From NCBI GenBank assembly GCA_044892525.1, contig CM097887.1:27900001-27964000 (forward strand): 64,000 nucleotides of DNA, given 5' to 3'. The DNA comes from Schmidtea polychroa. Taxonomy: Eukaryota. A program made the position numbers and the translations under genes. The notes beneath the pieces are model-generated. The model was not told the origin of the DNA. It did not search any database and worked only from the letters and a program-made list of their open reading frames with translations. How positions within the stretch are numbered: position 1 is the first letter of the stretch; the number at the start of each line of letters is the position of its first letter. Shown one piece after another: positions 28,371 through 57,299 of this stretch.

Positions 28371-29459
28371 TGTTAGGGATAGGCCTGGAGCCTTGTTGAC
28401 AAAATAAATAAAAATTACTAAAATTAGAAATAGTATAAATAAAAATAATAAAGTATTACCAAAAATAAAAGATGGGTTTTATTAATTACTATTAATAGAA
28501 TTAAGTTGTATATAGGAATATTTGATAATACTATTACTATATATAGTAATTATAAAATTGCTATTGATATAATAAATAATTAAAATATGATATAAATACT
28601 GGTTCAAAACGAGAACCAAGGACGAGAAAATTGACGGAAAAATTGACGATAAAAGTAACGATAAAACATTGAGACAATAATTTGGGGCGAGAAACATTAA
28701 GAAGATTTTGGACGATAGAATTAACAAGAAAAGAAAACGTATTTCGGAGAGAGACGATAAATTAGTTGATTGATTTAAAGAAACGTGATCAAAGAATCAC
28801 GGTGTTTATTTTAATTAAATTCAACACAAGTCTGAGTTGTTGAAATTGGATCGCACACGAAGAAATTCCGGCTATAATTTCCAACCAATATCAATTCTAC
28901 TATAAATTGATCAGCAAATTAGTTCAGAGGGAGAAGAAATAAGAAATAAGCTAAGAGCCAAGAATATTATCGTCACAGAATTGTAAAAAGGATTGGTCTA
29001 CAACAGTGTTTGGCAATTCAGGTAGATTATATTGTCAAGGGATAAACTAGTATCCTGTTGAATAGATAAAATTAAAGCGAATACAAAGTATAGATCTTTT
29101 ACTTTAGTGTTCCCTGGGAGCCTCAAAATCATTCCCTCTTGCTTGCCCAACTCTTTAGTCATATTGCGATCGTTGTGCTACACAGGAGCCATCGATTTCT
29201 TGCAGGCTGTGGTAAACAGTAAGGATTAATAAATCCGTTTTCTTGTATTCTTTGCACATATATTATAAATATCTGTTGTAAATTATTAAATACATTTTTA
29301 TAAAAGAGAAAGGCGTTTGTTGTTAATTCAGTGATTTAAAACTCATATACGCAACCACATTAAATAACTTATTTATATTTATTTTTATTTATTTATCTTA
29401 ATTAAGTTATTGGAGTCATTTGTGTTAAGATCTGTAGTCCCCGTTTTTCGATCTTAACA
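28371..29459 (+). repeat. 5' LTR
   Basis: TGTTAGGGAT...GATCTTAACA, with TGTTA/TAACA inverted ends; no difference from the 3' LTR seen by eye. Confidence 0.97.
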
Positions 29460-29462
29460 TTT

Positions 29463-29480
29463 TGGTGAGCCCGACGTGAT
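29463..29480 (+). promoter_or_regulatory. Primer-binding site for tRNA-Trp
   Basis: TGGTGAGCCCGACGTGAT lies 3 nt after the LTR. Its reverse complement ATCACGTCGGGCTCACCA matches the vertebrate tRNA-Trp 3' end as I recall it (ATCACGTCGGGGTCACCA) at 17 of 18 positions. Confidence 0.85.
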
Positions 29481-29596
29481 ACAATTTACGGGGGAATAAG
29501 AATTTTATTTATAAAAGGCAAACATCTTTTTGAATCATTGAGTTAAGAAATAGAAGGGTAATAAATTTAAGACCAGGTAATAGAAACCAGCAAATA

Positions 29597-32398
29597 ATGG
29601 CAGAGATAAATAATTTACAAAATTTAAACGAGAATAATTTACAAAATAATAATGTGCCAATAGCTCAACCACCAGTGGTAGATTTTATGAGATACCCAAC
29701 AATTCCGATTAAACCATTTAGTGGAAACCCAGAGGAGTTTCCAGAATTTATGTCCGAATATTTTCAGTTAGCCAGAGCATTAGGATTCCCGGAACCGGTA
29801 ATGATTTTGAGATTACCTTTATATTTAAAAGGGATGGCGCGGGAAATATATAACGATGTTATAATAGCCGAGCATCCAGTTGAATGGAATGTATTACGAT
29901 TAGCGTTACAAAACAGAATATTACCGGGGGATGCAACTAGAGTGCTGAGACAACAGTTTTATAATAGGCGACAAAATTCGGGTGAGCATGTTGGGGAATT
30001 TTCATATCAAATAATGATGTTGGCAGAGAGAGCATTTGGTAATAGGGCAGCCTGGAATGATGCAACTAGAGCATTAGTAAAAGATCAGTTTTGGTCAGGG
30101 TTATCGTCAGCAATGAGAAATGCACTCAGTTTACACATAGGAGATAATTTAGAGGAATTAACTCGCAAAGCGTGTTTAATTGAAAGTAGCATTGAGAAAT
30201 CAAATAATTTTGCTATTAGTAGCAACAAGTCAGACATTGAGTGTTTTAATTGTCATAAAAAGGGACATATGTCAAAAGATTGTAAAAGTAGGAATAATTC
30301 TCCAGGGGACAAATTATGTACCAAGTGTGGGAGAAATAATCATGTGGCATCAAACTGTAGAATTTCGGACCTAAATTGTGAGAAATGCAAGCGCAAGGGA
30401 CATGTAGCGTCAGTTTGTAAAGCTAGTTTTGGGGGGAATAATTCAAATAATAATAATAGTAGAAATAGAAGCCCCGATAGGAATTTTCGTGGTAATAATA
30501 ATAATAATTTTAATAATAATATTAAAAGGGATGAAGTAAATTCGGGGGGTAAAATTAAATGTCATAAGTGTGGAAAATTTGGTCATATTATGCGTTCTTG
30601 TCCACAAAATGAGTTATCTAATAACAATGGTAGTAGTAACAATGGAAATAATCGATCGAAGCAGACAACGTTTGCAGTGAATTCAGATCACAAATTAACG
30701 TATTTGCAGCAGCTTGAATTAGAAATTCAAGAAGAGAGAAACAGGTTAGCGAGGCTAACAACAAATGAAACTGATGGGTACGATGAAAATGAAGGTGTTT
30801 ATATGACGTCAGCCAAAAGGAGGCGAAATAAAAATAATTATGTAGAACTTGAAGTGTTGATGCTTCAAGAAAGTCCACAGGAGGACAACGAGGAAAAGAC
30901 TATGGTCATAGAACCAGAAGTCTGTGAGGGTTTACAGGTTTCACCCAGGAAAAATCTAGTGGCTGTGGCCATGGAGCCAGAAGCCAACAGAGAAATAGAA
31001 GGTTTACCGGTTTCACCAGTTAAAAATCGTAAGGCTTTGGACATGGATCCAGTAGCTAATGAAATTGTTCCAACAGGAGTTTTGGAAAAAAGATGGGCTT
31101 CGGTCAGTGAACCGGAAGTTCTTATAGCCACATCATCCATGCGAGGTGAGTGTGGTAGTGAACCAATAAAGGTTCGAGAAGCATCGAAAGAGGAAAGAAA
31201 TCCCATCGATGACTGTAGAAAAATATTATTACGCAAGAGCGTATGGCAAAGAGAAATGAGACAGAAATTAGAAAACATTCGTTTAAACCCCGTTAATGAG
31301 AATGAGGTTGACAAAGTAATGGATATCATATCAGAGTTAAATAGAGATAAGGAATATTATCCAGAATTGAGAGAAATTCTGAGAAATATTGGCCTAAATT
31401 GGAAACAAAGAGAGAATCTGGAAGATTCTACAATTTTTGTATCTTTCCCAAAGGGTTGTTTTCGTAGATATACAATTAATCCAAGCGAAAAGGTAGAAGC
31501 ATTGGCAAAGAGAGTTTCTGTGGTAAAACCTCAATTGAGATGCAAATTATATTTATTGGGAGAAAAATTATTAGAGGGAGAAACCCTGTTAGATTGTGGT
31601 ATACTACCAGGGAAAAATATGGTTATAAAAGCAAAGTTTCACAAGGAAACTGTTACTGTAGTGGACTTGGATAATGTCCTTACTATAAGCGAGATTGAAA
31701 TTGATCAATTAAATCAAATATCAGCCGTACCACATAGGTTGGGAATCGAGCTGATGAAAAACCCAAGAGATGGGGAAGCCATTAAGATGATAATGGATTG
31801 GATACTGGAGTTGCGAATCCCAGTAGATACTCTTAGAGAGATAATGCCATTGATGGTGCCTTTAGTAAAAGAGACATCACAATTTCAGACACAAGCAAAG
31901 ATGCTGTTGATTAAAAATGGACATGCTATCAGACATTTGGAAGGTAGACAAGGTCCAGTGATGTTAGATATCAGGATACCCAGGAGAGGACACCTGATAC
32001 AACAATTTTCGTGTTATCATAGGGTAAAGAAACTGAGAAAAAGGATATCAGAAATATTAAAAGAGTCATTCCTAATAATGATACATGGTTGTCAGGTGGA
32101 TGACGACGAATTTCTAGTAGATGTTGGATGTTTTCCCAATGAGGAAACAGTTGTATTAATATTACTGGTAGAGTTTCCAGAGGATCAATGGGCAACTTTG
32201 AGATTGCCAGATAATGCTGAAATGGAGGATGAAACAGTACATCCTGAGCAAAATCAAGTAGACGGGAATACTCATCAGGAACCCGTAACTACAGTAGACT
32301 TAGATGAAGAGATAGATAAGTATCTCAAGGAGCTTGATAACACTGAAGACGAGTTAATCGAAATATTTCCTACAGGGAAGATAATGAAGTACAATTAA
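29597..32398 (+). CDS. gag: Extended Gag, 933 aa: capsid-like region, four CCHC zinc knuckles, C-terminal extension with two ubiquitin-like domains
   Basis: Capsid-like KPFSG-PEEF...LPLYLKG-A; knuckles CFNCHKKGHMSKDC, CTKCGRNNHVASNC, CEKCKRKGHVASVC and CHKCGKFGHIMRSC; Ubl-like segments near 31430-31640 and 31955-32175. Confidence 0.9.
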   Translation: MAEINNLQNLNENNLQNNNVPIAQPPVVDFMRYPTIPIKPFSGNPEEFPEFMSEYFQLARALGFPEPVMILRLPLYLKGMAREIYNDVIIAEHPVEWNVLRLALQNRILPGDATRVLRQQFYNRRQNSGEHVGEFSYQIMMLAERAFGNRAAWNDATRALVKDQFWSGLSSAMRNALSLHIGDNLEELTRKACLIESSIEKSNNFAISSNKSDIECFNCHKKGHMSKDCKSRNNSPGDKLCTKCGRNNHVASNCRISDLNCEKCKRKGHVASVCKASFGGNNSNNNNSRNRSPDRNFRGNNNNNFNNNIKRDEVNSGGKIKCHKCGKFGHIMRSCPQNELSNNNGSSNNGNNRSKQTTFAVNSDHKLTYLQQLELEIQEERNRLARLTTNETDGYDENEGVYMTSAKRRRNKNNYVELEVLMLQESPQEDNEEKTMVIEPEVCEGLQVSPRKNLVAVAMEPEANREIEGLPVSPVKNRKALDMDPVANEIVPTGVLEKRWASVSEPEVLIATSSMRGECGSEPIKVREASKEERNPIDDCRKILLRKSVWQREMRQKLENIRLNPVNENEVDKVMDIISELNRDKEYYPELREILRNIGLNWKQRENLEDSTIFVSFPKGCFRRYTINPSEKVEALAKRVSVVKPQLRCKLYLLGEKLLEGETLLDCGILPGKNMVIKAKFHKETVTVVDLDNVLTISEIEIDQLNQISAVPHRLGIELMKNPRDGEAIKMIMDWILELRIPVDTLREIMPLMVPLVKETSQFQTQAKMLLIKNGHAIRHLEGRQGPVMLDIRIPRRGHLIQQFSCYHRVKKLRKRISEILKESFLIMIHGCQVDDDEFLVDVGCFPNEETVVLILLVEFPEDQWATLRLPDNAEMEDETVHPEQNQVDGNTHQEPVTTVDLDEEIDKYLKELDNTEDELIEIFPTGKIMKYN

Positions 32399-32460
32399 AT
32401 CAAGATGAAACAAACATCGGAGCTAGTACATCGCGACAAGTCGAGCCACCAAGAGAAAGA

Positions 32461-35145
32461 GTGAGCCCGAAGTTAGTCGAGAATAAAAAGAAAAGAGAGA
32501 GAAGGGGTAGACCGAGGAAAAGTCAAATGAACCCACCCCCAAGAGAACTTTTAAAACCAGTTACAATTCAAAATGTAACTAAGCAGGCTTTAGCAGGGAT
32601 AGCTAGCCAAATTGATAAAAGCGTTGGAGACGCTAGTGATAAAACGGAAACATGGAAAATACTAAGTCAAATCTTACGATTGATCAAGCCTGATTGGCAA
32701 ATTAAGAAAGATAAAAGTGTTAATGTTGACAAAATTGCAGAAAAAGTCAAGAAAGCTATGGAAAAGATTCCAGGAAGCACCACGGAACAGGAGATGTTCG
32801 AAATAGCAGGGCAATTCATAGATGAAGGCCTGACGAAAGGGAAAATGATAACGATTCTAGCCTTAATGTTTAAAAATGCATTGAGCATAATTAAAGATGA
32901 TTCGTCGAAAATTCCAGCAGCCATAGACAAGCTGACTGATATCATCGAAGTGAATTTCAGAACATGGATGACTGAACATAAGTTTTGGGATATAAAAGAA
33001 ACGAAAGGAAAATATGAATTAAATGAAGAATTGTTGACAGAAAATATTTCAAGTAGTCCACGGGGAACAGGTGGATTTACTAGTTGGATGATGATGTTGT
33101 TGGTAATGATGGGAATATTGCGACAGACAAATTCCCTAACGGCATATGATTGCAGTGAACCAATATTATCGCGAATCTACTCATTAGTAGACACAGTGGA
33201 ATGCAAGGAAGCATATCCAGATAAAGTTGCAAAAAGGGAAGACGTGGAATATCATGTTTATCAGCAAACAGAGTTTTACAGAACCAGAGTGAGGGAATGT
33301 CGAATACAGAGAGCGACGTTCGAATATTACTGTGGATCGAATAGTTATTCAGCATTTTTAGGAGCTAAACTCATTCCGATACCGTTAATCATCCCACCAG
33401 AGGATTGTGTAAATGCTTTTCGGTCAAAAACAGTTAAAATAGATCATGAGGTGACAATTACCGCAGAAGAAGGGAAAAAGTTGGGTATAACTATTACCCG
33501 GGGAGGACCGATAGCAGATGATGGTTCTTGTCATGGTAGAAAGAAAGTTAGAGGTTCTAATGTAGTAAACTATGTGGTAACAGTTGAGGACTACACAGTA
33601 GAGCTGATAGAGTACGAAGGAACTTTCGAAGTATCCACGGGAAAAATGATGTCTCATCCAGAATGCAACGTGAAATATGGTTATTGTAAAACCAGTTTAG
33701 CAGTATTAACGTACCAATCAATGAGAGATTTTTGTGATTTAGGATACCTGAAAAAGGTAGTATTTTCAAGGCTAGATGGGAAAAGCTTTACGTCTCAGGA
33801 TTCACAACAAAGTGGTTGGGGAGACAAGATAGCTCACAAAACGAAAAAGGAAGTGGTACCAGAGAAAAGCACAGCAGTAGTATTAGTCTCAAAGGATTCC
33901 ACAGATGCAATTCGTTTAGTCAGAAAGAAACAGACAACAAAATGTGGTGTACCAATATTTGAAACCAACTACAAGGGAATATACTTAGCATACAAGTATG
34001 TTCCAGCAGCAGAATCATTGCATCTATCAGATATTAAAATAGCCAAGTATATCAATAATAATATTGATTTCTTGTATCATGATCTGCAGAAACAATTATT
34101 AGATGTGTATCAGGAAGTGATCCTGAACGACTGTCGTTTGAATCGGGAAATAATACGAAATAGATTAGCAATATCTATAGCTAATCCGGATTTAATAATG
34201 CCAATGTTGACAGAGGAAGGAACATTTGGTAGAATTTTGCGTGAAGCAATTTATAGTTACCAATGTAAAGCAATAGAGGTAGAAATCACCAAATATGATC
34301 GATGTACATTGGAGCTACCTGTGAAATATAAAGGAAAATTGAGATTCCTGATGCCAGTATCACACCAGTTATTAAAGGAGGATACCTCACCTTTAACTGC
34401 AATTTGCAATCCAGCAATGTCACCATTATACAAAATAAACAATATTTGGATTTCATTGCCAGACAGAAAGCCGCCTTCAAAACCAGTTGAAGTGCTTCAA
34501 GCTACAAAGTTAGAAACTAAAATGGAGTTTCAACCATTAAACGAAATGTCAAAAGGCGGAGTATATACTCCGGAAGATATAGAAGAAGCTCGGAGAGCAA
34601 TTGTGTTTCCCCAAATCAGAGATCGGGGAGTGACAGAGATAATAACAAGAATCTATCAATCATATGATGGAAAACCGGACTATAATCTATTATTTGGACC
34701 AGAACATTACAAAGAAGCTGCATCAAATGTAATACGGAAAATCTGGGGTAGATTTACAAGCTTTGGCATTTTTGTAGCAGGATGTTCAGGTATATATGCA
34801 ATAGTGATGATATTGAAAATAATTATATCGCAATTATTTTCCACCTATAGTATCTTCAAGATCGGGGGATGGTCTTGGAAGTTGCTGTTAGGAATGTGTC
34901 CAGTTTGTGCAGATTTTGCAGTATTTCATCATCATAATAAAGAGATTAAGAGAATGAAGAGGCAAACTATAAAGAAACATGAGTTAATAATGTATGAACC
35001 TAGTCATCGAGACGATGACAATTCTGACGAGGGAGGTAACCTAGAGGGCTATGAGACCTCAGACAACACCTCAATAAAACCAGACAACAAAAAACCGAAA
35101 TTTCAAAATTTTGAAAATAGTACTTTACAAACAGTACCCTGTTAA
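32461..35145 (+). CDS. env: Envelope polyprotein: N-terminal Bcl-2-like domain, internal signal peptide, chuvirus/gB-like fusion glycoprotein, TM anchor (frame open from 32347; first ATG 32527)
   Basis: Hydrophobic WMMMLLVMMGILRQTNS then LTAYDC; cysteine pattern YYCG-S, GSC-G, C-G-C, CG-PI-ETN, YQC-I-V, C-LELPV-Y, GGVYTPE, WG-FT-FG; TM near 34760-34840. Confidence 0.85.
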   Translation: MSPKLVENKKKRERRGRPRKSQMNPPPRELLKPVTIQNVTKQALAGIASQIDKSVGDASDKTETWKILSQILRLIKPDWQIKKDKSVNVDKIAEKVKKAMEKIPGSTTEQEMFEIAGQFIDEGLTKGKMITILALMFKNALSIIKDDSSKIPAAIDKLTDIIEVNFRTWMTEHKFWDIKETKGKYELNEELLTENISSSPRGTGGFTSWMMMLLVMMGILRQTNSLTAYDCSEPILSRIYSLVDTVECKEAYPDKVAKREDVEYHVYQQTEFYRTRVRECRIQRATFEYYCGSNSYSAFLGAKLIPIPLIIPPEDCVNAFRSKTVKIDHEVTITAEEGKKLGITITRGGPIADDGSCHGRKKVRGSNVVNYVVTVEDYTVELIEYEGTFEVSTGKMMSHPECNVKYGYCKTSLAVLTYQSMRDFCDLGYLKKVVFSRLDGKSFTSQDSQQSGWGDKIAHKTKKEVVPEKSTAVVLVSKDSTDAIRLVRKKQTTKCGVPIFETNYKGIYLAYKYVPAAESLHLSDIKIAKYINNNIDFLYHDLQKQLLDVYQEVILNDCRLNREIIRNRLAISIANPDLIMPMLTEEGTFGRILREAIYSYQCKAIEVEITKYDRCTLELPVKYKGKLRFLMPVSHQLLKEDTSPLTAICNPAMSPLYKINNIWISLPDRKPPSKPVEVLQATKLETKMEFQPLNEMSKGGVYTPEDIEEARRAIVFPQIRDRGVTEIITRIYQSYDGKPDYNLLFGPEHYKEAASNVIRKIWGRFTSFGIFVAGCSGIYAIVMILKIIISQLFSTYSIFKIGGWSWKLLLGMCPVCADFAVFHHHNKEIKRMKRQTIKKHELIMYEPSHRDDDNSDEGGNLEGYETSDNTSIKPDNKKPKFQNFENSTLQTVPC

Positions 35146-36268
35146 AGCAAAAAGGAGGAAAAGGCAGGAGTGGCCTGTAAATTATTTGTCACCATACGAG
35201 GGTAGAAAAAAGATAATACCAGAACGAGTCGAAGAGGAAATGTTAAAGAGGTTCGAGTTCAGAACAAATACAGATATATTACCATCTACCTCATACCCAA
35301 CGTATAAAATGAAGTTCGAGACAATGCCACCCTTGGGTACATCAGTATTAGAGATGGTACCAAAATATCCATTCAGCACGTTGGAACGGCTAAAGGAAGA
35401 GTATAAAGATGAAATAAAATCAGAAAATGACAAGGATAGTGATGATCAACAAAAGTTCAGAGACAATATTCGAGGAATCTCAACAATATTAATGGTCAAT
35501 ATGGGTAAAAAGACTCATAAACCTACGATTAAATTAAAAGTTAACAGGCATACGGTACATGCCATTATTGATTCAGGATCAGATTTGACTTTGATTGAAG
35601 CAAATTTATTAAACGAAAAAGAATTACAAGCAATAGTGCCGACATTAACTGTTGCATCAGGAGCAAATGGACAACCTATCAATGTTATCGGAACATTAGA
35701 TTGTGAATTAAGGTTGTGTGATCAAAAATTTAGACACGATATCAAAGTCACTAGACAATGTATGGCAGAACGTATCGTGGGAATAGATATATTGAAAAAG
35801 TTAAAAGATATTGTATTCGATTGTGCAACAGGCGAATTAGTAAAAATGACGGGTAGAAAACGGGAAACCTACAGTGTGGATGTAGTGTTTTTGGGTAGAA
35901 CGGTGAAAATACCACCGAGGACCGAAACAGTTTGTTTTGTAGCAACACACCAAGAGGTGGAAGGAGATGTTATTTTCAAACCAAGTGAGCAGTTCGTAAA
36001 TAGGTATAAAACACCTATGGTGCAAAACTTGGCAACAGTACGGGGAGGAAGAATCCCGATTAGATTAACGAATCTAGCAAGCAAATCATTGAGATTATAC
36101 CCAGAGACTAGAGTGGGTAAAGTGATACAACTATCTAACATGCAGAAAGAGTCTGAATCGATATTATCAGTAGAAGAGGATGAACGAGATCCTGATATCG
36201 AATATTACGACGCACCGAGCTGCGATAGTAAAACCTTATCTAGAAAGGAAAACATCAGAGTTAACTAA
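35111..36268 (+). CDS. pro: Aspartic protease region of Pol (frame open from 35078; first ATG 35240), ending in an in-frame TAA
   Basis: VHAIIDSGSDLTLI active site and IVGIDIL motif; same frame as the RT ORF, separated by a single TAA (36266-68). Confidence 0.9.
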   Translation: MKIVLYKQYPVKAKRRKRQEWPVNYLSPYEGRKKIIPERVEEEMLKRFEFRTNTDILPSTSYPTYKMKFETMPPLGTSVLEMVPKYPFSTLERLKEEYKDEIKSENDKDSDDQQKFRDNIRGISTILMVNMGKKTHKPTIKLKVNRHTVHAIIDSGSDLTLIEANLLNEKELQAIVPTLTVASGANGQPINVIGTLDCELRLCDQKFRHDIKVTRQCMAERIVGIDILKKLKDIVFDCATGELVKMTGRKRETYSVDVVFLGRTVKIPPRTETVCFVATHQEVEGDVIFKPSEQFVNRYKTPMVQNLATVRGGRIPIRLTNLASKSLRLYPETRVGKVIQLSNMQKESESILSVEEDERDPDIEYYDAPSCDSKTLSRKENIRVN

Positions 36269-39200
36269 TTGTTACGTAAATATGACCAAATTTTCGCAAA
36301 ACACGAGTATGACTTAGGGCAAGTTAATATTTTAGAGCATGAAATTAAATTAACAGAAAATAAACCGATAAAAATACGCCCGTACAGAATACCTCAAAGT
36401 ATACAAGGGTCCGTTGATAAACAAATTAAATTAATGCAAAAATACAATATAATCAGACCCAGTAAATCTCCATATTCCTCACCTTTGGTGGTTGTAGCTA
36501 AAAGAGACGGCTCAGTTAGATTATGCAATGACTATAGGAAATTAAATGAACAAACAGTTAGTGATAATCACCCGCTACCTTTGCTAGATTACATTTATGA
36601 TAAAATGAAAAATTCAAAGTTGTTTACTGTGATGGATGCACAGAAAGGCTTTTACCAAATAAAGATGAGCGAAGACTCAATTCCTATGACAGGATTTTCT
36701 ACAAGTAGTGATCATTTCGAATATTTAGTAATGCCGTTTGGATTAAAAGGAGCCCCTCCAACTTTCCAGAGGGCAATGAATATCATGTTGATGGATGCAC
36801 ATCACGCAATGGTATATATAGACAACATTATCATCTTCTCGGAAGACTTAGATAAACATTTGGATCATCTGGAGGACATTTTCAAAAGAATAATTATGGC
36901 AAACCTGAAAGTAAAGCCAAGCAAATGCAAATGGGCAGAATCGGAAGTGATTTACGTAGGGCATGTAATATCACACGATTGCGTAAGACCAGATCCGGCT
37001 AACACGGATAAAGTAAAGAATTTCCCACAACCAGTGAATGTGAAACAAATCAAAGGATTTTTAGGGTTAACGGGATATTACCGGAAATTTATACGAAACT
37101 TTTCAGCAATTGCTTTTCCTCTAACTACCTTAGAAAAGAAAGGTATAAAATTTTTATGGGGAGAGGATCAGCAACAGGCATTTGACAAGTTAAAAGATGC
37201 ACTATGCAAACCACCAATTTTACGATTTCCAGATTTTAGAAGACAATTCATGGTGATGACCGATGCATGTACAAGAGGTATAGGTGCAGTTTTGGGGCAG
37301 AAAGATGAAATTGGTGATGAGTACGCAGTAGCATATGCAAGTCGTGGATTGAAGCCACACGAGAAAAGTTATGCTGTAATAGAATTGGAAGCATTAGCAT
37401 TAGTATTTGCAGTGGAAAAATTTAGTCATTACCTATGGGGCAGAAAGGTAATTTTCTATACAGATCATAGACCCTTGCAATGGCTGTTAAAACATAGAGA
37501 CGAAGCATCAAAATTAGTAAGATGGGCATTGAGATTACAGCCATATAATATCGAAATTGTATATCGTAAAGGTAAAGCTAATGGTAATGCAGATGCATTA
37601 TCACGAATGGAGCAAGAGCCTGAGTTAGAAGATATAAAGGAAGGAAGATTAGAAGGAACTATCTTCATGCTAACAAGAGAGGCTAACACTTTGAGCGATT
37701 TAGTAGAAGCACAGAAAAATGATGACGAAATCAATATGATCAGACAAGCCATAGAAGCAAAGGCCATACCAAATGAATTTCAGAAATATTGGGAGAAACA
37801 TAAAGATAAATTCATATTGGAAGAAGGTCTAATCAAATATGTGGAATCAAGAGATAATGTAATTTTAGTGCCAAAGAAATACAGAGAATCACTATTATTA
37901 CAATACCACGATGGAGCACTGGGAGGACATCTCTCAGCTAGACATACATTGTCAAGATTGAAAATGAAATACTTTTGGCCGAATATGAAAGATGATGTTA
38001 AAAAGTGGTGTCAATCGTGTAAGATATGTATAACCAGAAGGAACACAGGTAGGAAACCACATGTTCCATTAAAACCAATGCCAGTACCGTCCTCGCCATT
38101 GGAGATGACCGCTATGGATGTACTAGGGCCGTTTAAAGAATCAAAGATGGGAAATAAATTTATCATAGTATTTTGTGACTACTTAACGAAGTGGCCCGAA
38201 GCATTTCCAATTCCGAATCATAAGGCAGACACAATTGCCAGAATTTTTGTAGAACAAATTGTATTTAGATATGGTGTTCCGACAAAATTGCTTACAGACA
38301 GAGGAAAGGATTGCATGAGTAATTTGTTAAAAAGTATTAATGATTATTTTGGTATTTTAAAATTAAATACCTCACCATACCACTCACAGACGGATGGATT
38401 GGTAGAGAGGTTCAATGGAACCTTGGCAAACATGTTATCATCATACGTAAACTCAGGTCAGACGGACTGGGATGTACACATACCATCATGTTTGTTTGCG
38501 TATAGAAATGCTGTTCATTCAGTAACAGGAGAAACACCTTTCTATCTGATGTATTTAAGGCATAGCAAGATGCCAGCGGATCTTATATTTTATCCAAAAG
38601 CATCACAGAACTGTGATGAGGGAAACTACTTATTCGAGATGAGAGAAAGAATGCAAGAAGCCTGGAAGAAAGCAGGTTTGAACATTCGTTATAACCAAGA
38701 AACAATGAAGGAATATCATGATCGTAAAGCGAAAGATCATGGGTTTTTGGTAGGAGATTATGTCATGTTAGAAGGACATTACAACAAAAAAGGTTTATCT
38801 CCTAAATTAATGAGAAATTACAAAGGGCCGTTTCAAATTTTGAAAGTCACAGAAACCAATTTAGTCTTACAGTTAGTGGCAAACAGAAAAGCAGAACCGA
38901 TAATGGTTCATGCAAACAGATGTAAAAAGATAGCCCCACCAGAAAAGGAGAAACCAAAATCAGAAATTGATGAATTCGAAATAGATAAGAAATCGAAAAA
39001 GAAAACGTTAGAATCATATAAAAGTATCCTAAAGGGACAACCAGAACGATACCCTTTACGATCTCGGCAAATCCCGAAAACAGTTACATTTTTAGCAGTG
39101 ATTAGCTGTGTTATGATGATGGGACAGGCATTCGAGGTATTCACACCTAAAGCCAGTCAACATCCAGATATCGAATATCAACGAACAGATAGAGCATTCA

Positions 39201-40057
39201 GATTTCATTTAACGAATATACAATGGCATAGATATGATCTATATTTGGTAGCTGCTGAAAGAGGGATATCTTTTCACTTGAATACATGGGATCGAGTGAA
39301 AGTAATAGAGGGACTTATGCCGAATACAAGTTATCTATTAGAAATCAAGACATTCTTTGCAGACCCAAACGTTTTTGCAGATGGAGGAGATTGTGTAGAT
39401 AAAGCAGCATGGATTTTGAAGACTGCAAAATTTACCAAAAAAGTAGAGATTTCATATCTCGGGCAGATAGTTAGATTTACTCATCCACGGTGGAACAGAA
39501 ATGATACATCTTCCACTCACGATTGGAGGACGAATAATAAAATTGCGTTAATTGTCATATTAGAAGACGACCAGCGAGTCGAGAGATTAGTGCTCAACCA
39601 TGCGTATCTAAGTAGAAGATGGAAAATCAAACCAGATACCGTGACAAAGGCGAACATTTCGTATTTGGAATTTACGGAGAGAACCGGTTGGTATACAATA
39701 TATCAAGAAATAATAAATCTAATACCTCCCACAAGAGGAGAACTAACTAGCAAAGAAGGAAAGGCTAGATTAGTGAATATTCCTGGTTGTAAAGGAATAA
39801 ATGCTTTAGATTGGTTTAGTATTAGAAAGGTAGCGAGTGTAAAACAGCCCCGCATAACTAAAAAAATTAATAATTGTAGTTGTCAAAATACGTTAAAGGG
39901 GGCAGCGAGGGTGAAAACGCCAACATGGCTAATGTTAATTATGATAGGGGGAGTAATTTGCATGATTTTAATTTTGCTCTTAACCACCCTATGGATGTTT
40001 AGATTAAATATACGAGATATGCGTTATTGGGAAAATATTTACGAAACCGAGGTATAG
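36269..40057 (+). CDS. pol: RT - RNase H - integrase, with C-terminal signal-like/FN3-like/TM extension; RT active site reads YIDN
   Basis: LCNDYRKLN, MPFGLKGAP, YIDN; TDACTRGIGAVL, ELEALA, YTDHRPL, NADALSR; HHCC finger, MDVLGP, LTDRG, VERFN; TM WLMLIMIGGVICMILILLLTTLWMF. Confidence 0.95.
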   Translation: MLRKYDQIFAKHEYDLGQVNILEHEIKLTENKPIKIRPYRIPQSIQGSVDKQIKLMQKYNIIRPSKSPYSSPLVVVAKRDGSVRLCNDYRKLNEQTVSDNHPLPLLDYIYDKMKNSKLFTVMDAQKGFYQIKMSEDSIPMTGFSTSSDHFEYLVMPFGLKGAPPTFQRAMNIMLMDAHHAMVYIDNIIIFSEDLDKHLDHLEDIFKRIIMANLKVKPSKCKWAESEVIYVGHVISHDCVRPDPANTDKVKNFPQPVNVKQIKGFLGLTGYYRKFIRNFSAIAFPLTTLEKKGIKFLWGEDQQQAFDKLKDALCKPPILRFPDFRRQFMVMTDACTRGIGAVLGQKDEIGDEYAVAYASRGLKPHEKSYAVIELEALALVFAVEKFSHYLWGRKVIFYTDHRPLQWLLKHRDEASKLVRWALRLQPYNIEIVYRKGKANGNADALSRMEQEPELEDIKEGRLEGTIFMLTREANTLSDLVEAQKNDDEINMIRQAIEAKAIPNEFQKYWEKHKDKFILEEGLIKYVESRDNVILVPKKYRESLLLQYHDGALGGHLSARHTLSRLKMKYFWPNMKDDVKKWCQSCKICITRRNTGRKPHVPLKPMPVPSSPLEMTAMDVLGPFKESKMGNKFIIVFCDYLTKWPEAFPIPNHKADTIARIFVEQIVFRYGVPTKLLTDRGKDCMSNLLKSINDYFGILKLNTSPYHSQTDGLVERFNGTLANMLSSYVNSGQTDWDVHIPSCLFAYRNAVHSVTGETPFYLMYLRHSKMPADLIFYPKASQNCDEGNYLFEMRERMQEAWKKAGLNIRYNQETMKEYHDRKAKDHGFLVGDYVMLEGHYNKKGLSPKLMRNYKGPFQILKVTETNLVLQLVANRKAEPIMVHANRCKKIAPPEKEKPKSEIDEFEIDKKSKKKTLESYKSILKGQPERYPLRSRQIPKTVTFLAVISCVMMMGQAFEVFTPKASQHPDIEYQRTDRAFRFHLTNIQWHRYDLYLVAAERGISFHLNTWDRVKVIEGLMPNTSYLLEIKTFFADPNVFADGGDCVDKAAWILKTAKFTKKVEISYLGQIVRFTHPRWNRNDTSSTHDWRTNNKIALIVILEDDQRVERLVLNHAYLSRRWKIKPDTVTKANISYLEFTERTGWYTIYQEIINLIPPTRGELTSKEGKARLVNIPGCKGINALDWFSIRKVASVKQPRITKKINNCSCQNTLKGAARVKTPTWLMLIMIGGVICMILILLLTTLWMFRLNIRDMRYWENIYETEV

Positions 40058-40263
40058 GGGGAAAGTCTCACCATATACTAGGAAGTGTAAATATATATAG
40101 TTATTTATTTTATATATATATGTTATTTATATTAGTATGTAGACTAATGTGGGCTCAAATGAGCATTGGTAAAATCAGACATCAGCGTATGTCGACTTTG
40201 GTTACCCTGCGAGGGTCTATCACGAAAGTGATAAAAGCTGTTAATTATTTTATTTTTAGAAAA

Positions 40264-41055
40264 ATGAATTATAACAGAGAATCAAAGCCGCCAGTCAAAG
40301 CAAATCGACGACACCCATTGGCAACGTACAATTCCCAAACTCGAGTTGAAACTGAAGTGTATAGCACCTATAAAGAAGAGTATGTATATCGGTTCATCGG
40401 AACCACGGTCGCAGCAAAAATGAATCACCTCACCTCAAACTATTGGTATTATCCCAGGAGAGTGGATATTCCAAACGACTTCAAATTTCCAGGAGGGCCT
40501 CGAAGGCAAATGATGGTAACGGTTATAAATAACCAAGGTAGATTAAAATTGGCGGAACTATGTAGAGAGTATGGTTCATGTCCGAAAATAGAAAACTTGT
40601 GGATTCATGCGATCAATAGGCCATTCACGGTGTTTATGGCGGGATTAGAGTTACCTGTTGAATTAGAAAAACAGTGTACTCTGGAGATATACCACGCTGA
40701 TGGACGAGAACGGAATATTATGATCCAGGCAGCGGCGGTGGACACCATAATCGCAATAGAAATCTTAGACTTCAGGAAGCCATACTCTATAGTTAGCAAA
40801 AACGAGCCAACTTGGATTTATAATGTAAATGAAGACGATATACGGCAGTGTAAATCATTTGTGAGGAAGAAGTTATCCAAAGCCGAGGAGAACGAGGCTA
40901 CAATTTTCATATCGGCAGGTTTTGCCAAATCCCGAATCGAATTGAAGGAGACAATTATCCAAATCGCAATTATGGATATGAGAGGAAATAATTTATTGAG
41001 TGCGGTAGTGACTCCCAGAGATCCAGTAAAACATTACCAAAACGCACCAATATAA
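40264..41055 (+). CDS. 3' accessory ORF (263 aa from ATG 40264); C-terminus resembles the start of a DEDDh exonuclease fold
   Basis: Splice acceptor ttattttatttttag ends at 40259, 5 nt before the ATG; IIQIAIMDMRGNNLLSAVVTPRDPVKHY. Confidence 0.6.
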   Translation: MNYNRESKPPVKANRRHPLATYNSQTRVETEVYSTYKEEYVYRFIGTTVAAKMNHLTSNYWYYPRRVDIPNDFKFPGGPRRQMMVTVINNQGRLKLAELCREYGSCPKIENLWIHAINRPFTVFMAGLELPVELEKQCTLEIYHADGRERNIMIQAAAVDTIIAIEILDFRKPYSIVSKNEPTWIYNVNEDDIRQCKSFVRKKLSKAEENEATIFISAGFAKSRIELKETIIQIAIMDMRGNNLLSAVVTPRDPVKHYQNAPI

Positions 41056-41060
41056 GTTAA

Positions 41061-42272
41061 AAGAACCCGACATTAGAGGAAATTTTGCTTAAGGATCTGA
41101 TCTCGGTAGCCAATCTACCAGTGCAGCGAATATTGGGTATTCGTGACCTTTCGGCAAATAAACTATTGGAAACCAGAGGAGTCCCAAAGATTCATGGTCA
41201 TTACAGATTGGGATTCCTGACAAAAACTTTCCTGCGTACGTTTCCCGGAGAACCAAGAAATTTAGTGGTCACCAATGAGGCACTGGCAATACGTGCTGTT
41301 TATTTACATATCAGGAACGAATGGTTAGACCATATCACGATTCCCCAGGAGGAATTCATTTCAGCAACTACAGCAGCGATAGTTGAACAGGAAATGACGC
41401 AGAAGAGGAGATTACCTGAGCAACCATCTACATCTGAGCAACCCCAACCTAAGAGGAAATCACCTGTGGATCTACCACCGCCTCCAGCTATATCTATTGG
41501 AGAAGAAGATGAATATGAAACATGTGCTAGTGAGATAGAGACAGCAAAATCACCTAAACAATCATCGGGAGCTGCCTATCAGCCAAAGAATAAATCGGAT
41601 AATGCGGTCAGAAAAGAAAATCCAGAAGGGGGCAAGGTGAAAAAGATGTTAAAGAAAATGTTACCCATAAAAAGAGACAAGTCGAAGTTAAAGTTGAAGA
41701 AAGTTGTTAAACCGTCGGAAGGAACGACAAAAGAGACACCCAGCAGTTCGGAAGATAGGACTATTAAACCTCAAAAGATATTCAGCGAACCAGATGATGA
41801 CATTATGGAAGTTGCCTTTCAACCTCCGGTTAAGGAGATGCAGGAAGCAATAAAGGTTAAATCTGAACCTGTGGTAAGGCAGAAATTGTTAAAGATTGCC
41901 AAGGAGAATATCATCAAGAAACCAGTTTCGGTTGATGTGGACGGTTTCGAACCAATGTGGTACAAACGTCCGGATAGTAAATGGAAACCCAGAGCGAAGG
42001 AGTATGACTGCCAACCAGTCACGAGAATGGCAGTCAATAATAATCAAAAATATGATGTTTATGACGTAGACGGGATCCCTTACGTGGTGTCTACAGTCAT
42101 ATTAACGAGTGCTCTGGATGGTAAGCCTTTGGCAGTGAGTTTTGAGCCAGAAGTCTTACAGAAGAGGAAAAAGAAGTTGCTGCAGCAATACGTCGTTGCC
42201 AATAGCTACAGCACGAAGGAGTTGCACCTTTACAAAGTTCCCGACCCAGATCCCGATGATCTGGATATCTAA
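41061..42272 (+). CDS. 3' accessory ORF (about 400 aa): exonuclease-like N-terminus, charged disordered middle, unknown C-terminal domain; probably once continuous with the preceding ORF
   Basis: Frame open from 41061 (KNPTLEEI...ILGIRDLS...RLGFLTKTFL...TNEALAIRAVY); 1.2-kb ORF inside the element. Confidence 0.6.
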   Translation, partial: KNPTLEEILLKDLISVANLPVQRILGIRDLSANKLLETRGVPKIHGHYRLGFLTKTFLRTFPGEPRNLVVTNEALAIRAVYLHIRNEWLDHITIPQEEFISATTAAIVEQEMTQKRRLPEQPSTSEQPQPKRKSPVDLPPPPAISIGEEDEYETCASEIETAKSPKQSSGAAYQPKNKSDNAVRKENPEGGKVKKMLKKMLPIKRDKSKLKLKKVVKPSEGTTKETPSSSEDRTIKPQKIFSEPDDDIMEVAFQPPVKEMQEAIKVKSEPVVRQKLLKIAKENIIKKPVSVDVDGFEPMWYKRPDSKWKPRAKEYDCQPVTRMAVNNNQKYDVYDVDGIPYVVSTVILTSALDGKPLAVSFEPEVLQKRKKKLLQQYVVANSYSTKELHLYKVPDPDPDDLDI

Positions 42273-42500
42273 TCCAAGAGCGTTGCCACCCAACATGTGT
42301 CGTCGAATTCAGAATGTGTATAAAAGGACTTAACTATTATTTGATTTGTGCTATCCAGTGTTTTGACATTCATTATTTGTGATCTAAAACATTAATTTTG
42401 TGTTTTTTCTTATTTGATTAATTTTTATGTTTTTATTGTAATACTGTTTACCAAAAGCCTTCTTTAGTCTTGCTTTTATCTTGTTTTCGAGACGAAAATC

Positions 42501-42517
42501 TTTTAGGGGGTAAGACT
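42501..42517 (+). promoter_or_regulatory. Polypurine tract
   Basis: ttttAGGGGGTAAGAct immediately before the 3' LTR TG. Confidence 0.8.
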
Positions 42518-43606
42518 TGTTAGGGATAGGCCTGGAGCCTTGTTGACAAAATAAATAAAAATTACTAAAATTAGAAATAGTATAAATAAAAATAATAAAG
42601 TATTACCAAAAATAAAAGATGGGTTTTATTAATTACTATTAATAGAATTAAGTTGTATATAGGAATATTTGATAATACTATTACTATATATAGTAATTAT
42701 AAAATTGCTATTGATATAATAAATAATTAAAATATGATATAAATACTGGTTCAAAACGAGAACCAAGGACGAGAAAATTGACGGAAAAATTGACGATAAA
42801 AGTAACGATAAAACATTGAGACAATAATTTGGGGCGAGAAACATTAAGAAGATTTTGGACGATAGAATTAACAAGAAAAGAAAACGTATTTCGGAGAGAG
42901 ACGATAAATTAGTTGATTGATTTAAAGAAACGTGATCAAAGAATCACGGTGTTTATTTTAATTAAATTCAACACAAGTCTGAGTTGTTGAAATTGGATCG
43001 CACACGAAGAAATTCCGGCTATAATTTCCAACCAATATCAATTCTACTATAAATTGATCAGCAAATTAGTTCAGAGGGAGAAGAAATAAGAAATAAGCTA
43101 AGAGCCAAGAATATTATCGTCACAGAATTGTAAAAAGGATTGGTCTACAACAGTGTTTGGCAATTCAGGTAGATTATATTGTCAAGGGATAAACTAGTAT
43201 CCTGTTGAATAGATAAAATTAAAGCGAATACAAAGTATAGATCTTTTACTTTAGTGTTCCCTGGGAGCCTCAAAATCATTCCCTCTTGCTTGCCCAACTC
43301 TTTAGTCATATTGCGATCGTTGTGCTACACAGGAGCCATCGATTTCTTGCAGGCTGTGGTAAACAGTAAGGATTAATAAATCCGTTTTCTTGTATTCTTT
43401 GCACATATATTATAAATATCTGTTGTAAATTATTAAATACATTTTTATAAAAGAGAAAGGCGTTTGTTGTTAATTCAGTGATTTAAAACTCATATACGCA
43501 ACCACATTAAATAACTTATTTATATTTATTTTTATTTATTTATCTTAATTAAGTTATTGGAGTCATTTGTGTTAAGATCTGTAGTCCCCGTTTTTCGATC
43601 TTAACA
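42518..43606 (+). repeat. 3' LTR
   Basis: Same length and apparently the same sequence as 28371-29459; followed by the TSD CTTA. Confidence 0.97.
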
Positions 43607-52071: not shown

Positions 52072-53392
52072 ATGGGGTTTTTTTTAAATATTTTTAGAGT
52101 AATAAATTTTATTTCGTATTTAATTAAAATGATATATTTCATTATTTAAATCTAATTATAATATAATGAAAATTTAGAAAAAATCCAAATCTACTGAAGA
52201 GCAATTGGAATTCATTAAGAAAGTTGATATTTAATTATTAGTTATAATTTTGAGCTTGTATTAGTCAATCTTAGAAATTGAAGAAAAACGGAGGCTGAAT
52301 TTAAGCAATGAAAAGCATTTAATTGGTAGTTTGATGCTTTACTCGTTTATGCTATATTTCACATGTACTGCATTCATTTTTATTTATGTTAAACCTTCCA
52401 AAACTAATTACTGGCCTCTGTACTTTGCCCCATTAGTAGCATTTCCATTTCTGTTAGTCTACAATTGACAAATTTTATAATTTAATTTTGTCAGGATTTT
52501 CTACATTAAAAAGATTATTCAATGGTTTTATATTCGACGATTGAACTATGTCGGTAAGTTTCAATATCTTAATTCCTTTAACGTTATTTAATTTAAAAAT
52601 TTGATTTTTAGATAAAAAATTATTGGATTTAAAAAAGAATCTTAAAGATTTGGTAAAATATTATAGAAATTAAAGAAATCTAAATCAACTAATTGAAATA
52701 GCTAACAAACGTCATTGAAAAAGAAACTTATAAAAAAGCAAATGAAATATTGAATAAGTTTGATCCGAATTTCGAATTTCGTAATGAATATGAGAATTTC
52801 CCCGATAAGAAATTACGCAGCTGCTCTGATCACAATTCTGATAGCGAATTGGACAGGAAAAATCTCAATAATAAAACTAAATCGATTTCTGAACCGAATA
52901 AAACCGTTTCCGTCAACGACCTACGTAAACATGAATTCACAAAGAAGCCAAGTTGATTATTATCATTCTAATACCGATTGATTGACCTCGATTCCAGTAT
53001 CGATCATCAGCTCGGATATCAAATTGATTCGGCCTTTACTCAATCAGAATCGGTCGAGTTTCGATAAGATTATCGATTTCATCGTTGGGGACGGATTCGA
53101 CCGTCGGTTCGCGCTCATTTGCAAGCATTGCTCTAGTCACAACGGAATGGCAATGGCTGATGAATTCCCGTTCATTGGTGGACATTGATTATTGCCCTGC
53201 TTTGATATTATACCCTGTTACTATATAGGTTACAAGTGCGCCTATTGTGCCGGGTTCAACGCGCCTAGGAAAACCAAGCCAGACCCACCGACAATTTACG
53301 ACACTGATCAAGAGGCTGAAAGAAATTTGACAGGGAACTATTTCAAATTGCCCAATCAAATTATTAAATCAGGTGAAATTTTCATTTGCTAA
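52072..53392 (+). CDS. LNPK: ER junction protein Lunapark, about 8 exons; last exon uncertain
   Basis: Exons 52072-98, 52178-222, 52265-452, 52495-553, 52612-652, 52702-951, 52998-53177 and 53229-392 (GT-AG introns 42-79 nt): N-terminal MG, two TM segments, EKETYKKANEILNKFDP, IVGDGFDRRFALICKHCSSHNGMA...YKCAYCAGFNAPRK zinc ribbon. Confidence 0.9.
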
Positions 53393-53397
53393 TTTTG

Positions 53398-54830
53398 GTA
53401 ATTAATTATTTTTATAATTATTAATATTTTATAATTAATTATTTTTATAATTAGTAATATTTTATATTATTTTATAATTGTTAATATTTTATATTATTTT
53501 ATAATTATTAATATTTTATATTATTATATAATTATTAATATTTTATATTATTGTATAATTATTAATATTTTATATTATTTTATAATTATTAATATTTTAT
53601 AATTAATTATTTTTATAATTATTAATATTTTATATTATTTTATAATTATTAATATTTTATAATTAATTATTTTTATAATTATTAATATTTTATATTATTT
53701 TTATAATTGTTAATATTTTATAATTAATTATTTTTATAATTATTAATATTTTATATTATTTTATAATTGTTAATATTTTATATTATTTTATAATTATTAA
53801 TATTTTATATTATTATATAATTATTAATATTTTATATTATTTTATAATTATTAATATTTTATAATTAATTATTTTTATAATTATTAATATTTTATATTAT
53901 TTTATAATTGTTAATATTTTATATTATTTTATAATTATTAATATTTTATATTATTATATAATTATTAATATTTTATATTATTGTATAATTATTAATATTT
54001 TATATTATTTTATAATTATTAATATTTTATAATTAATTATTTTTATAATTATTAATATTTTATATTATTTTATAATTGTTAATATTTTATATTATTTTAT
54101 AATTATTAATATTTTATATTATTTTATAATTATTAATATTTTATATTATTATATAATTATTAATATTTTATATTATTTTATAATTGTTAATATTTTATAT
54201 TATTTTATAATTAATTATTTTTATAATTATTAATATTTTATAATTAATTATTTTTATAATTAGTAATATTTTATATTATTTTATAATTATTAATATTTTA
54301 TAATTAATTATTTTTATAATTAGTAATATTTTATATTATTGTATAATTATTAATATTTTATATTATTTTATAATTATTAATATTTTATATTATTGTATAA
54401 TTATTAATATTTTATAATTAATTATTTTTATAATTATTAATATTTTATATTATTTTATAATTGTTAATATTTTATATTATTTTATAATTATTAATATTTT
54501 ATAATTAATTATTTTTATAATTAGTAATATTTTATATTATTGTATAATTATTAATATTTTATATTATTTTATAATTATTAATATTTTATATTATTTTATA
54601 ATTATTAATATTTTATATTATTTTATAATTGTTAATATTTTATATTATTTTTATAATTATTAATATTTTATATTATTTTATAATTGTTAATATTTTATAT
54701 TATTTTATAATTGTTAATATTTTATATTATTTTATAATTATTAATATTTTATATTATTTTATAATTGTTAATATTTTATATTATTTTATAATTGTTAATA
54801 TTTTATAATTAATAATATTCTATAATTGAT
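53398..54830. repeat. AT-only minisatellite, unit about 27-35 nt (TTATAATTATTAATATTTTATATTATT and variants)
   Basis: About 1.4 kb of near-perfect tandem units with only sporadic G and no C. Confidence 0.95.
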
Positions 54831-57299
54831 AAAATTTATGATATTTTAAAATATTTATAAATAAAATTTTTTATAATATTTTATAGTTAATGGCAAAACA
54901 AAATAAAAACAACATGAAAATTTAATTTATTATATTTATTATTTTAAAGTTATTTTATTTTTTATTGTAATTTTTTGTTATAAAAAATAATAATAATTCA
55001 ATTATCTGTATATAATCAGAAATTTATGCAATATACACTTGTTATTATTCCCCAGTATCATATGAGATTGGTTCGCTGTCTGTCTACTTTCATTACTTCT
55101 ATTTAACTACTATTTATAATTAAAATTATTAATTATATTCTTTAATTGATAATATTTTATAATTATTAATATTTATGATATTTTAAAATATTTATAATTA
55201 AAATTATTTATAATATTTATATTTACAATTAATAATATTTATAATTAATTAATTATTTTATTTTTTAATTAATTATTTTCAAATTTCATTTGTAATTTTA
55301 GCATTAATGCAGATATCGACCACAAATATTTTTAATTGATTTTATAATACAAATTTATTTTAATTGATTGATTAATAAAATTATAATAAAATAATAAATT
55401 TGTATGAATATCGATTGGTCCATTTGATATTTGCCTTCCTCTCCGGTTTATTATTGACGAGAAATTTGTATAATGTCACAAATAATAATGTGACATTTGT
55501 GTCATAAATTATTCTTAATTTTTCAAATTTACATTACTTGATAACCTGGTGCCAGCCAAGCTTCAATTGTGACAAGTGTTTCAATAAAGTTTATTTTAAA
55601 ATTTGTCAAAATGTCACTTGTTCAATTAATGATTCATTTATCTTTATTTTTCAGATAAAGTTTTGAATTTTATTTTTTCAAATATCTTTTATAATTTTTT
55701 TTTCATTTCTTTTTTTTTCTATTTACTTACATTTACATAAAGTAAAAATGGAAAAGAAAATATTAAAAAATTATTATAAAATCAATTTTTAATTATAAAA
55801 AAGAATAAATTAAATACAAAAATTATCTAAAAATTAAATTTAAAAAATAATTAAAAATTAAAATATTGACTAATTATAAATTTTATAAATTTAATATTTT
55901 GAATTTAAAATTTTTTAAAATATTTTATTTATATTTTCTTTTTTTCTATTTTTTAAAAATTTATAAACTTATAAAGAACTTTAATAATTAAAAATTAAAA
56001 TATTGATTGAAAATAAATTAAATATTAAAATAATAAAAAATTAAGATATTGATTTTTAAAATTTTATTTTATGAAAACACAAATTTTTTAAAATATATAA
56101 ATTTGATATAAAAATAATTAAAAATTAAAATATTGACTAATTATAAATTTTATAAATTTAATGTTTTGAATTTTAATTTTTTAAAATATTTTATTCATAT
56201 TTTCTTTTTTTCTATTTTTTAAAAATATAAATTAATAATTAAATTATAAATTAAATACAAGAATAAAATCAACTTATAAAAATATATTCGAAGAGAAATG
56301 AAAAAAACATAAAAATAAATATCAATAATATTATAAAAAAATATTGATCGAATATCTATATAACGAAATGAAATATTGAAAGAAAATATAACTATTTATT
56401 GAATAAAATATTTCATTTATTTCCAGTTTGACAATTTCAGAATTTAATTACACGTAAAATTAAAATATATGATATATTAATAAAGAAATATTAATAAAAA
56501 TCAAAATATATATTGACAAAAAATATTGTTATAGAAAAAGAAGACTTAGAAATTTAATTTAAAAATTATATATAAAAAATTAAAATATTACTTAATTGTT
56601 TATATAATTAAATACAAGAAATTTTTAAAATTTATAAATAAAATTTTAAAATAATAAAATATTGAAAAATTAAATAATTAAGAAATTCGTAAAAATTATA
56701 AATAAAATTTAAAAATAATTAAAAATTAAAATATTGATTTTTTTGTTTAATTATTAAATAAATAAAAACAAAAAATTTTTAAAAATTATAAATTTAATAT
56801 AAAAATAATTAAAAATTAAAATATTGAATTTTGGTTTGGAGAAAATAAAATGTTCCCCAAGAATTCCTAAAAACTTTATCAACAACACGGTGAATATATT
56901 TTGCCCTTGAATTGCAGCAGAATTGCGAATCGAACTGATTAATTGCTGTGTAATTCCAGAGACAGGTAGGAATGGCGAGCTGCCGGCAGATTCGACAGCT
57001 GTGCACAGATCAAGATGCGTAGATCAAGACTCTGTGAAATCCTCCAATTGATACCATCATTGACATGCTGCCATTTGTCCGTGGAATATATATCTCTTCT
57101 GATAATCGATTTCTATCATCCGATTGGTCTATTTTTTATATTGGAAAATAAACATTATTGATATCAAATTTGAAGTCGTTTTGTATTTTGGTTGTGCTAT
57201 TTTCGATTTTATTGGATTCGGTTGTGTGTGTTGTGAATAATAATAATAATAAATCGATAAGAATTAATTGAATTTGACTTTTGAACCAATTTTATTAAT

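Follow-up and report, generated by a model that had tools for sequence, protein, structure and literature searches.

Giant gypsy-like elements of planarians, named Burro or GYPSM1, are described as encoding one polyprotein in which Gag with CCHC knuckles is followed by a Ubi2/SUMO-like motif, a BCL2-like domain and an in-frame Env, and then by Pol (Arkhipova and Yushenova 2019, PMC6431247). Errantiviruses of Platyhelminthes with the gene order GAG-ENV-POL, an HSV/gB-type Env and a length of ~15 kb have also been reported (PMC13524379). The element described here lies at 28371-43606 of a 64,000-nt stretch of Schmidtea polychroa DNA (contig CM097887.1, positions 27,900,001 to 27,964,000; "the window" is this whole stretch) and is a young, retrovirus-like mobile gene of the Ty3/gypsy type, with env between gag and pol in a Gag-Env-Pol polyprotein. 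This copy (the window copy) was compared with related copies and families in the searched sequence of the same genome, G000. As in Burro, ubiquitin-like (Ubl), Bcl-2-like and Env domains stand in frame between Gag and Pol. As in the gB-type errantiviruses, long terminal repeats (LTRs), a primer-binding site, gag and a gB-type env ahead of protease, reverse transcriptase, RNase H and integrase were found, the gene order and length being the same. The nearest of these is Smed_errantivirus_4, whose Env is visibly close to the window Env, by eye only. The main text of PMC13524379 contains neither "ubiquitin" nor "bcl", and cargo between Gag and Env is not discussed there.

The duplicated helix and ubiquitin-like unit

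The original prediction for this locus placed two Ubl domains in a C-terminal extension of Gag. The domains do lie downstream of Gag, but they form its C-terminus only in the broken window copy, as many sister copies carry one open frame. Straight translation of a sister copy gave Gag, a coiled coil, two successive helix and Ubl pairs, an acidic linker, an AT-hook, the Bcl-2-like domain, a hydrophobic segment, Env, protease and reverse transcriptase. The feature is real, although it was wrongly placed and probably wrongly interpreted, and it had been overlooked that helix and Ubl domain are a single duplicated unit inside the Gag-Env-Pol polyprotein.

A profile built only from slices of the second unit detects the first unit of the window (E 2e-5), and the Ubl domains are therefore the second halves of a helix and Ubl unit. 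By this profile, two units are present in families 1-4 and in homologues P0008 and P0016, and one in families 5-6; family 3, absent from the profile, scored 1e-13 and 1e-24. The unit was found in all eight loci fetched through Env matches and in 9 of the 11 fetched through Bcl-2 matches (the other two were Polinton-like), and each of the six families has it ahead of the Bcl-2-like domain. In a Burro-type giant element of G000 carrying MATH, TRAF and BIR domains, the unit stands right after MATH (E 3e-5), where PMC6431247 places the Ubi2/SUMO-like motif, with weaker traces upstream. Helix and Ubl domain are thus one duplicated unit of ~160 residues, common to compact and giant planarian elements.

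Coding comparisons indicate that the unit is under purifying selection. Between the window copy and 27 of 29 sister loci (two were dropped for indels), the proportions of nonsynonymous (pN) and synonymous (pS) differences were 0.012 and 0.102, in comparisons that are not independent of each other. Families 5 and 6 gave dN/dS values of ~0.13 for the helix and ~0.09 for the Ubl domain, the other family pairs being near saturation. Outside G000, an exhaustive protein search recovered 12 proteins, all singletons, namely 10 element-like proteins carrying the unit and two polyubiquitin-like proteins. Word-indexed protein searches with the polyprotein region, the alignment and longer proteins gave no match, the best feature scores in ESM Atlas (0.77-0.80) are leads only, and in BFVD any matches to viral proteins were confined to the Ubl parts (query TM at most 0.27).

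The fold and profile searches against beta-grasp families that had been proposed as a check did recover the beta-grasp, and both domains adopt this fold in the structure model, with fold matches that include midnolin, Nub1 and Dsk2. Profile matches to NEDD8 (2e-4) and ISG15 (1e-4), and also to the Ubl domains of Rad23 and ubiquilin, point to sequence homology with ubiquitin-family proteins, and PF00240 was matched by 4 of 13 members (best 6e-6). Judged by model and profiles together, the two ubiquitin-like folds are real.

For the analysis of their surfaces, 22 non-redundant Ubl domains (of 38 distinct matches) were aligned to host ubiquitin, to which the identity is 10-20%. The residues of ubiquitin's patch are rarely kept (Leu8 in 1, Ile44 in 4, His68 in 2 and Val70 in 1), with Tyr and Met at position 44 of the window domains. 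Lys48, Lys63 and Gly75 are kept in none and Gly76 in one, which agrees with the earlier expectation of domains that lack Gly-Gly and are not conjugated; the alignment also showed no basic C-terminal tail. Shared instead are basic residues at ubiquitin positions 22 (Lys/Arg, 18/22) and 27 (Arg/Lys, 18/22) and an acidic-then-aromatic run comprising Asp52 and Asp53 (15/22 each), Glu54 (21/22) and Tyr/Phe55 (19/22). Additionally, ~100 residues with four helices separate the two Ubl domains, which are thus not adjacent. By this alignment, the domains have lost ubiquitin's recognition surfaces and gained a family-specific basic and acidic surface; without Gly-Gly, neither conjugation nor cleavage by host deubiquitinases would be expected. 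SUMO-interacting-like motifs of the window's family are not conserved (two of six families).

The helical domain and possible roles of the unit

TFIIS N-terminal domains (TNDs, a family that includes LW domains and IBDs) are five-helix bundles with two hydrophobic pockets and a basic patch that bind TIM motifs. Their ligands in elongation factors are disordered, acidic motifs, and the integrase of lentiviruses is tethered by them as well (PMC9987994). A likeness of the helical domain to TNDs was spotted from the sequence prior to the fold search, in which Foldseek ranks 1-4 were LEDGF IBD/TND (prob 0.80-0.94, query TM 0.53-0.63), a match that is not significant. The top 50 of 48,161 VIA chains included 11 TNDs, from LEDGF, Elongin A, MED26, IWS1/Spn1, HRP2, PNUTS and LW domains. 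Comparison with PF08711 and PF11467 gave no Pfam or PDB match, and the domain showed a weak register match to three of seven host TND exons, with an hhalign score near control; the best-scoring host TND was a LEDGF-like exon, whose score was reached by 1 of 300 shuffles. The modelled helical domain may therefore resemble a human chromatin-tethering protein, as a candidate TND. Two other readings of the helices were rejected, the CARD/death domain because no such family was among the rows listed in the fold searches, and the MIT domain because of poor geometry (TM 0.33-0.40, rmsd 11-12 A). The host also carries an IWS1-like TND gene in more than 10 near-identical copies (L133-L143; G000:C2, ~164-172 Mb).

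We tentatively read the unit as a non-conjugated protein-binding adaptor that would be cut free by the element protease and would engage host chromatin or transcription-elongation proteins through its TND-like helices and the AT-hook; the TND identity, protease release, nuclear location, partners and benefit are parts that we infer. For the Ubl domains themselves, a role as host-protein-binding adaptor rather than budding signal is likely. The pre-Env segment would thread the polyprotein into the endoplasmic reticulum (ER), the element protease would cut after the nucleocapsid, and the released cassette would bind host proteins. A junction-like motif, drawn by eye, recurs at homologous positions of families 1 and 2 only, including after the last zinc knuckle, and there is no shared cleavage-like motif between the second Ubl domain and the Bcl-2-like domain. 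The TND-like helices and the nearby AT-hook would point to chromatin or elongation factors, and the element might benefit by staying transcribed or by having its integration steered. Should the helical half prove to be a TND, the domain hijacked by HIV integrase would have been captured by a retroelement, which would offer a direct route to site choice or sustained transcription of these abundant elements in planarian cells. An unlikely but more far-reaching version is an element-encoded LEDGF-like chromatin adaptor, in which a captured TND/IBD and a remodelled Ubl domain, duplicated and accompanied by the AT-hook, connect the integrase or transcription unit to the TND-TIM elongation network of the host. 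If true, it would be the first case of a mobile element that brings along the tether which lentiviruses borrow from their host.

What the receptors of ESCRT, the proteasome and deubiquitinases mostly recognise in ubiquitin is either its Ile44 patch or its C-terminal tail. The loss of ubiquitin's surfaces thus weighs against a budding signal, conjugation and an ISG15-type decoy, and neither of the two roles originally proposed, budding signal or proteasome/ISG15-type decoy, was supported. A built-in ESCRT signal substituting for a late domain is highly improbable, even though the unit follows the nucleocapsid as retroviral p6 does and no PT/SAP or PPxY precedes Env in any of the six families. 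Against it, the Ile44 patch lacks conservation, a YPxL-like match occurs in two of six families only and at unrelated places, the MIT-domain matches are poor, and the Env signal is predicted to anchor the precursor in the ER. The experiments in which Gag-ubiquitin replaces late domains and restores release of retroviruses are known, as the original prediction stated, but use true ubiquitin (PMC3751857). It is also quite unlikely that the Ubl domains are a handle or decoy for the proteasome, p97 or a deubiquitinase, controlling polyprotein turnover or soaking up host factors. The matches to Rad23, ubiquilin, midnolin, Nub1 and Dsk2 would fit this role, but they are no better than those to SUMO or ISG15 (tied Z), and the rarely kept Ile44, Leu8 and Val70, the missing basic tail and the separation of the two domains, unlike in ISG15, argue against it.

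A possible but doubtful account makes the unit a scaffold, either cytosolic or tethered to the ER, that helps the neighbouring Bcl-2-like domain to dampen the cell-death or immune signalling of the host. It might self-associate through its charged Ubl surfaces, as CIDE-N and PB1 domains do through complementary basic and acidic surfaces. The constant position upstream of the Bcl-2-like domain, the MATH, TRAF and BIR domains added in the Burro-type element, the conserved basic and acidic patches and the lack of a shared cleavage-like motif ahead of the Bcl-2-like domain are consistent with such a scaffold. The patches sit close together in the ubiquitin fold, however, and may merely stabilise the domain, while the TND-like matches and the AT-hook would be left unexplained; CIDE-N and PB1 were not among the 50 VIA fold-match rows for the Ubl domain, which does not exclude them. 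Interference with apoptosis and ubiquitination is suggested in PMC6431247. The top Foldseek match, the LEDGF-like host exon, the nearby AT-hook and the integrase in the same polyprotein would also suit a LEDGF-like tether of the element's own, with the helical domain binding the element integrase and the AT-hook binding DNA, so that integration is guided without a host cofactor. Such a tether is very unlikely given that the fold match is not significant, that LEDGF binding is lentivirus-specific according to the title of ref. 79 in PMC9987994, and that the helical domain diverges far faster than the integrase (19-72% versus 85-95% identity).

Element architecture and related mobile elements

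The element spans 15,236 bp, with LTRs of 1,089 bp that are identical at 1088 of 1089 compared positions; the single mismatch is a flanking base, at which the compared slice starts.

Table 1. Features of the window copy, in window positions.
Feature	Position	Strand	Evidence or remark
5' LTR (TG...CA)	28371..29459	+	4-bp target-site duplication precedes
Primer-binding site, presumably tRNA-Trp-like	29463..29480	+	18-mer 941x in G000; control 0
Gag: capsid-like region and four CCHC zinc knuckles	29597..30601	+	zf-CCHC E 3e-13, 4 stretches (Pfam)
Helical domain 1, diverged copy of helical domain 2	31190..31411	+	four helices in model; profile E 2e-5
Ubl domain 1	31421..31645	+	profile and fold matches
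Helical domain 2, TND/LEDGF-IBD-like candidate	31685..31945	+	
Ubl domain 2	31952..32170	+	homologues P0012, P0016 match Pfam ubiquitin, E 0.005, 0.003
Acidic low-complexity linker	32171..32398	+	22/67 residues acidic; frame breaks near 32,380
AT-hook-like motif within basic stretch	32500..32520	+	core in 4/6 families; P0016 Pfam AT_hook E 0.03
Bcl-2-like domain	32560..33018	+	Pfam Bcl-2 E 0.004
Internal hydrophobic segment, predicted Env signal or membrane anchor	33076..33135	+	hydropathy
gB/Monjiviricetes-type envelope glycoprotein with transmembrane segment	33136..35010	+	PF24664 E 9e-80
Protease, reverse transcriptase, RNase H, integrase (gypsy order)	35516..38857	+	Pfam
Post-integrase tail: second signal-like segment, ectodomain, transmembrane segment	39050..40057	+	
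3' accessory frame	40003..42272	+	interrupted near 41,055; one 775-codon frame in another copy
3' LTR	42518..43606	+	4-bp target-site duplication follows

The capsid label of Gag rests on homologue P0013 (Retrotrans_gag E 0.008). The Bcl-2-like domain was matched in six of seven family members (best 9e-7), and its profile matches Bcl-2/Bcl-xL (E 1e-5). In all six families it is followed directly by the predicted Env signal segment (32560-33135 in the window), so that it would have a tail anchor, as cellular Bcl-2 does; the hydropathy peak of that segment is over threshold in families 3-6 and under it in the window's family and family 2. The polyprotein runs on past the integrase into the post-integrase tail, which evolves fast, has no significant Pfam family and includes an ectodomain that is beta-rich and fibronectin-III-like by eye (window and L032, L144, L145, L146). 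The 3' accessory frame has relatives in three other families and contains a region that, by eye, resembles a degenerate DEDD exonuclease, with no Pfam match (also L038:2594-4918).

Although its LTRs are identical, the window copy is disrupted near 32,380, near 35,130 (frame break), at 36,266-36,268 (stop) and near 41,055, which may reflect mutation or assembly error. The G000 search gave at least 120 matches (119 of 1,471 candidates were scored). An open frame of 3,516 codons is present in 10 of the 30 best, and from the second Ubl domain to the Bcl-2-like domain 19 of these 30 loci are open, six have stops, two have frameshifts (one being the window) and three are not scorable.

Other mobile elements of G000 carry comparable cargo. 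In an unrelated multi-copy BEL/Pao family, Gag is preceded by a fused near-true di-ubiquitin with Gly-Gly and a fragment of a proteasome subunit (L113:1045-3033; many G000 loci), in contrast to the surface-stripped Ubl domains of the window element. Multi-copy Polinton-like elements (A32 ATPase, integrase; L073, L074) carry genes for Bcl-2 (E 1e-7) and for a TBP-like protein (E 2e-14), and are a second Bcl-2-bearing mobile-element lineage in this genome. The polyprotein of the Burro-type giant elements (L121-L128) includes MATH, whereas TRAF-like and BIR domains are in frames of their own; these elements also have an ankyrin-like tail and possibly three Ubl traces. Elsewhere in the window, at 53352-55000, lies an AT-rich tandem array whose units measure 10, 17, 27 and 33 bases.

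Comparison with known systems

Individual properties of the unit recur in several described proteins. LEDGF has AT-hooks, and the IBDs of LEDGF/p75 and HRP2, of the TND family, are the best Foldseek matches of the helical domain, which also has an AT-hook motif near it in the element; the match is nonetheless at 10-19% identity, and the element's domain is fused to a Ubl domain, is element-encoded and has no PWWP domain seen with it. ISG15, FAT10 and OASL also hold two beta-grasp domains per chain, but the pair of the element is split by a helical domain, and the ubiquitin insertions of the pestivirus BVDV likewise place a Ubl domain inside a viral polyprotein. From true ubiquitin, the Ubl domains differ in their low identity and missing Gly-Gly.

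Burro elements exceed 30 kb and carry MATH, BIR and ankyrin cargo, for which the frames of the much shorter window element gave no Pfam matches, and PMC6431247 names one Ubl motif, with neither a helical partner nor a duplication. A literature search, with subscription papers mostly outside its scope, found no TND-like domain or duplicated helix and Ubl unit in a retroelement. Because the Ubl-Bcl-2-Env layout is already published for Burro, the bare observation of these domains is not new; the duplicated helix and Ubl unit, with its TND-like candidate fold, is new.
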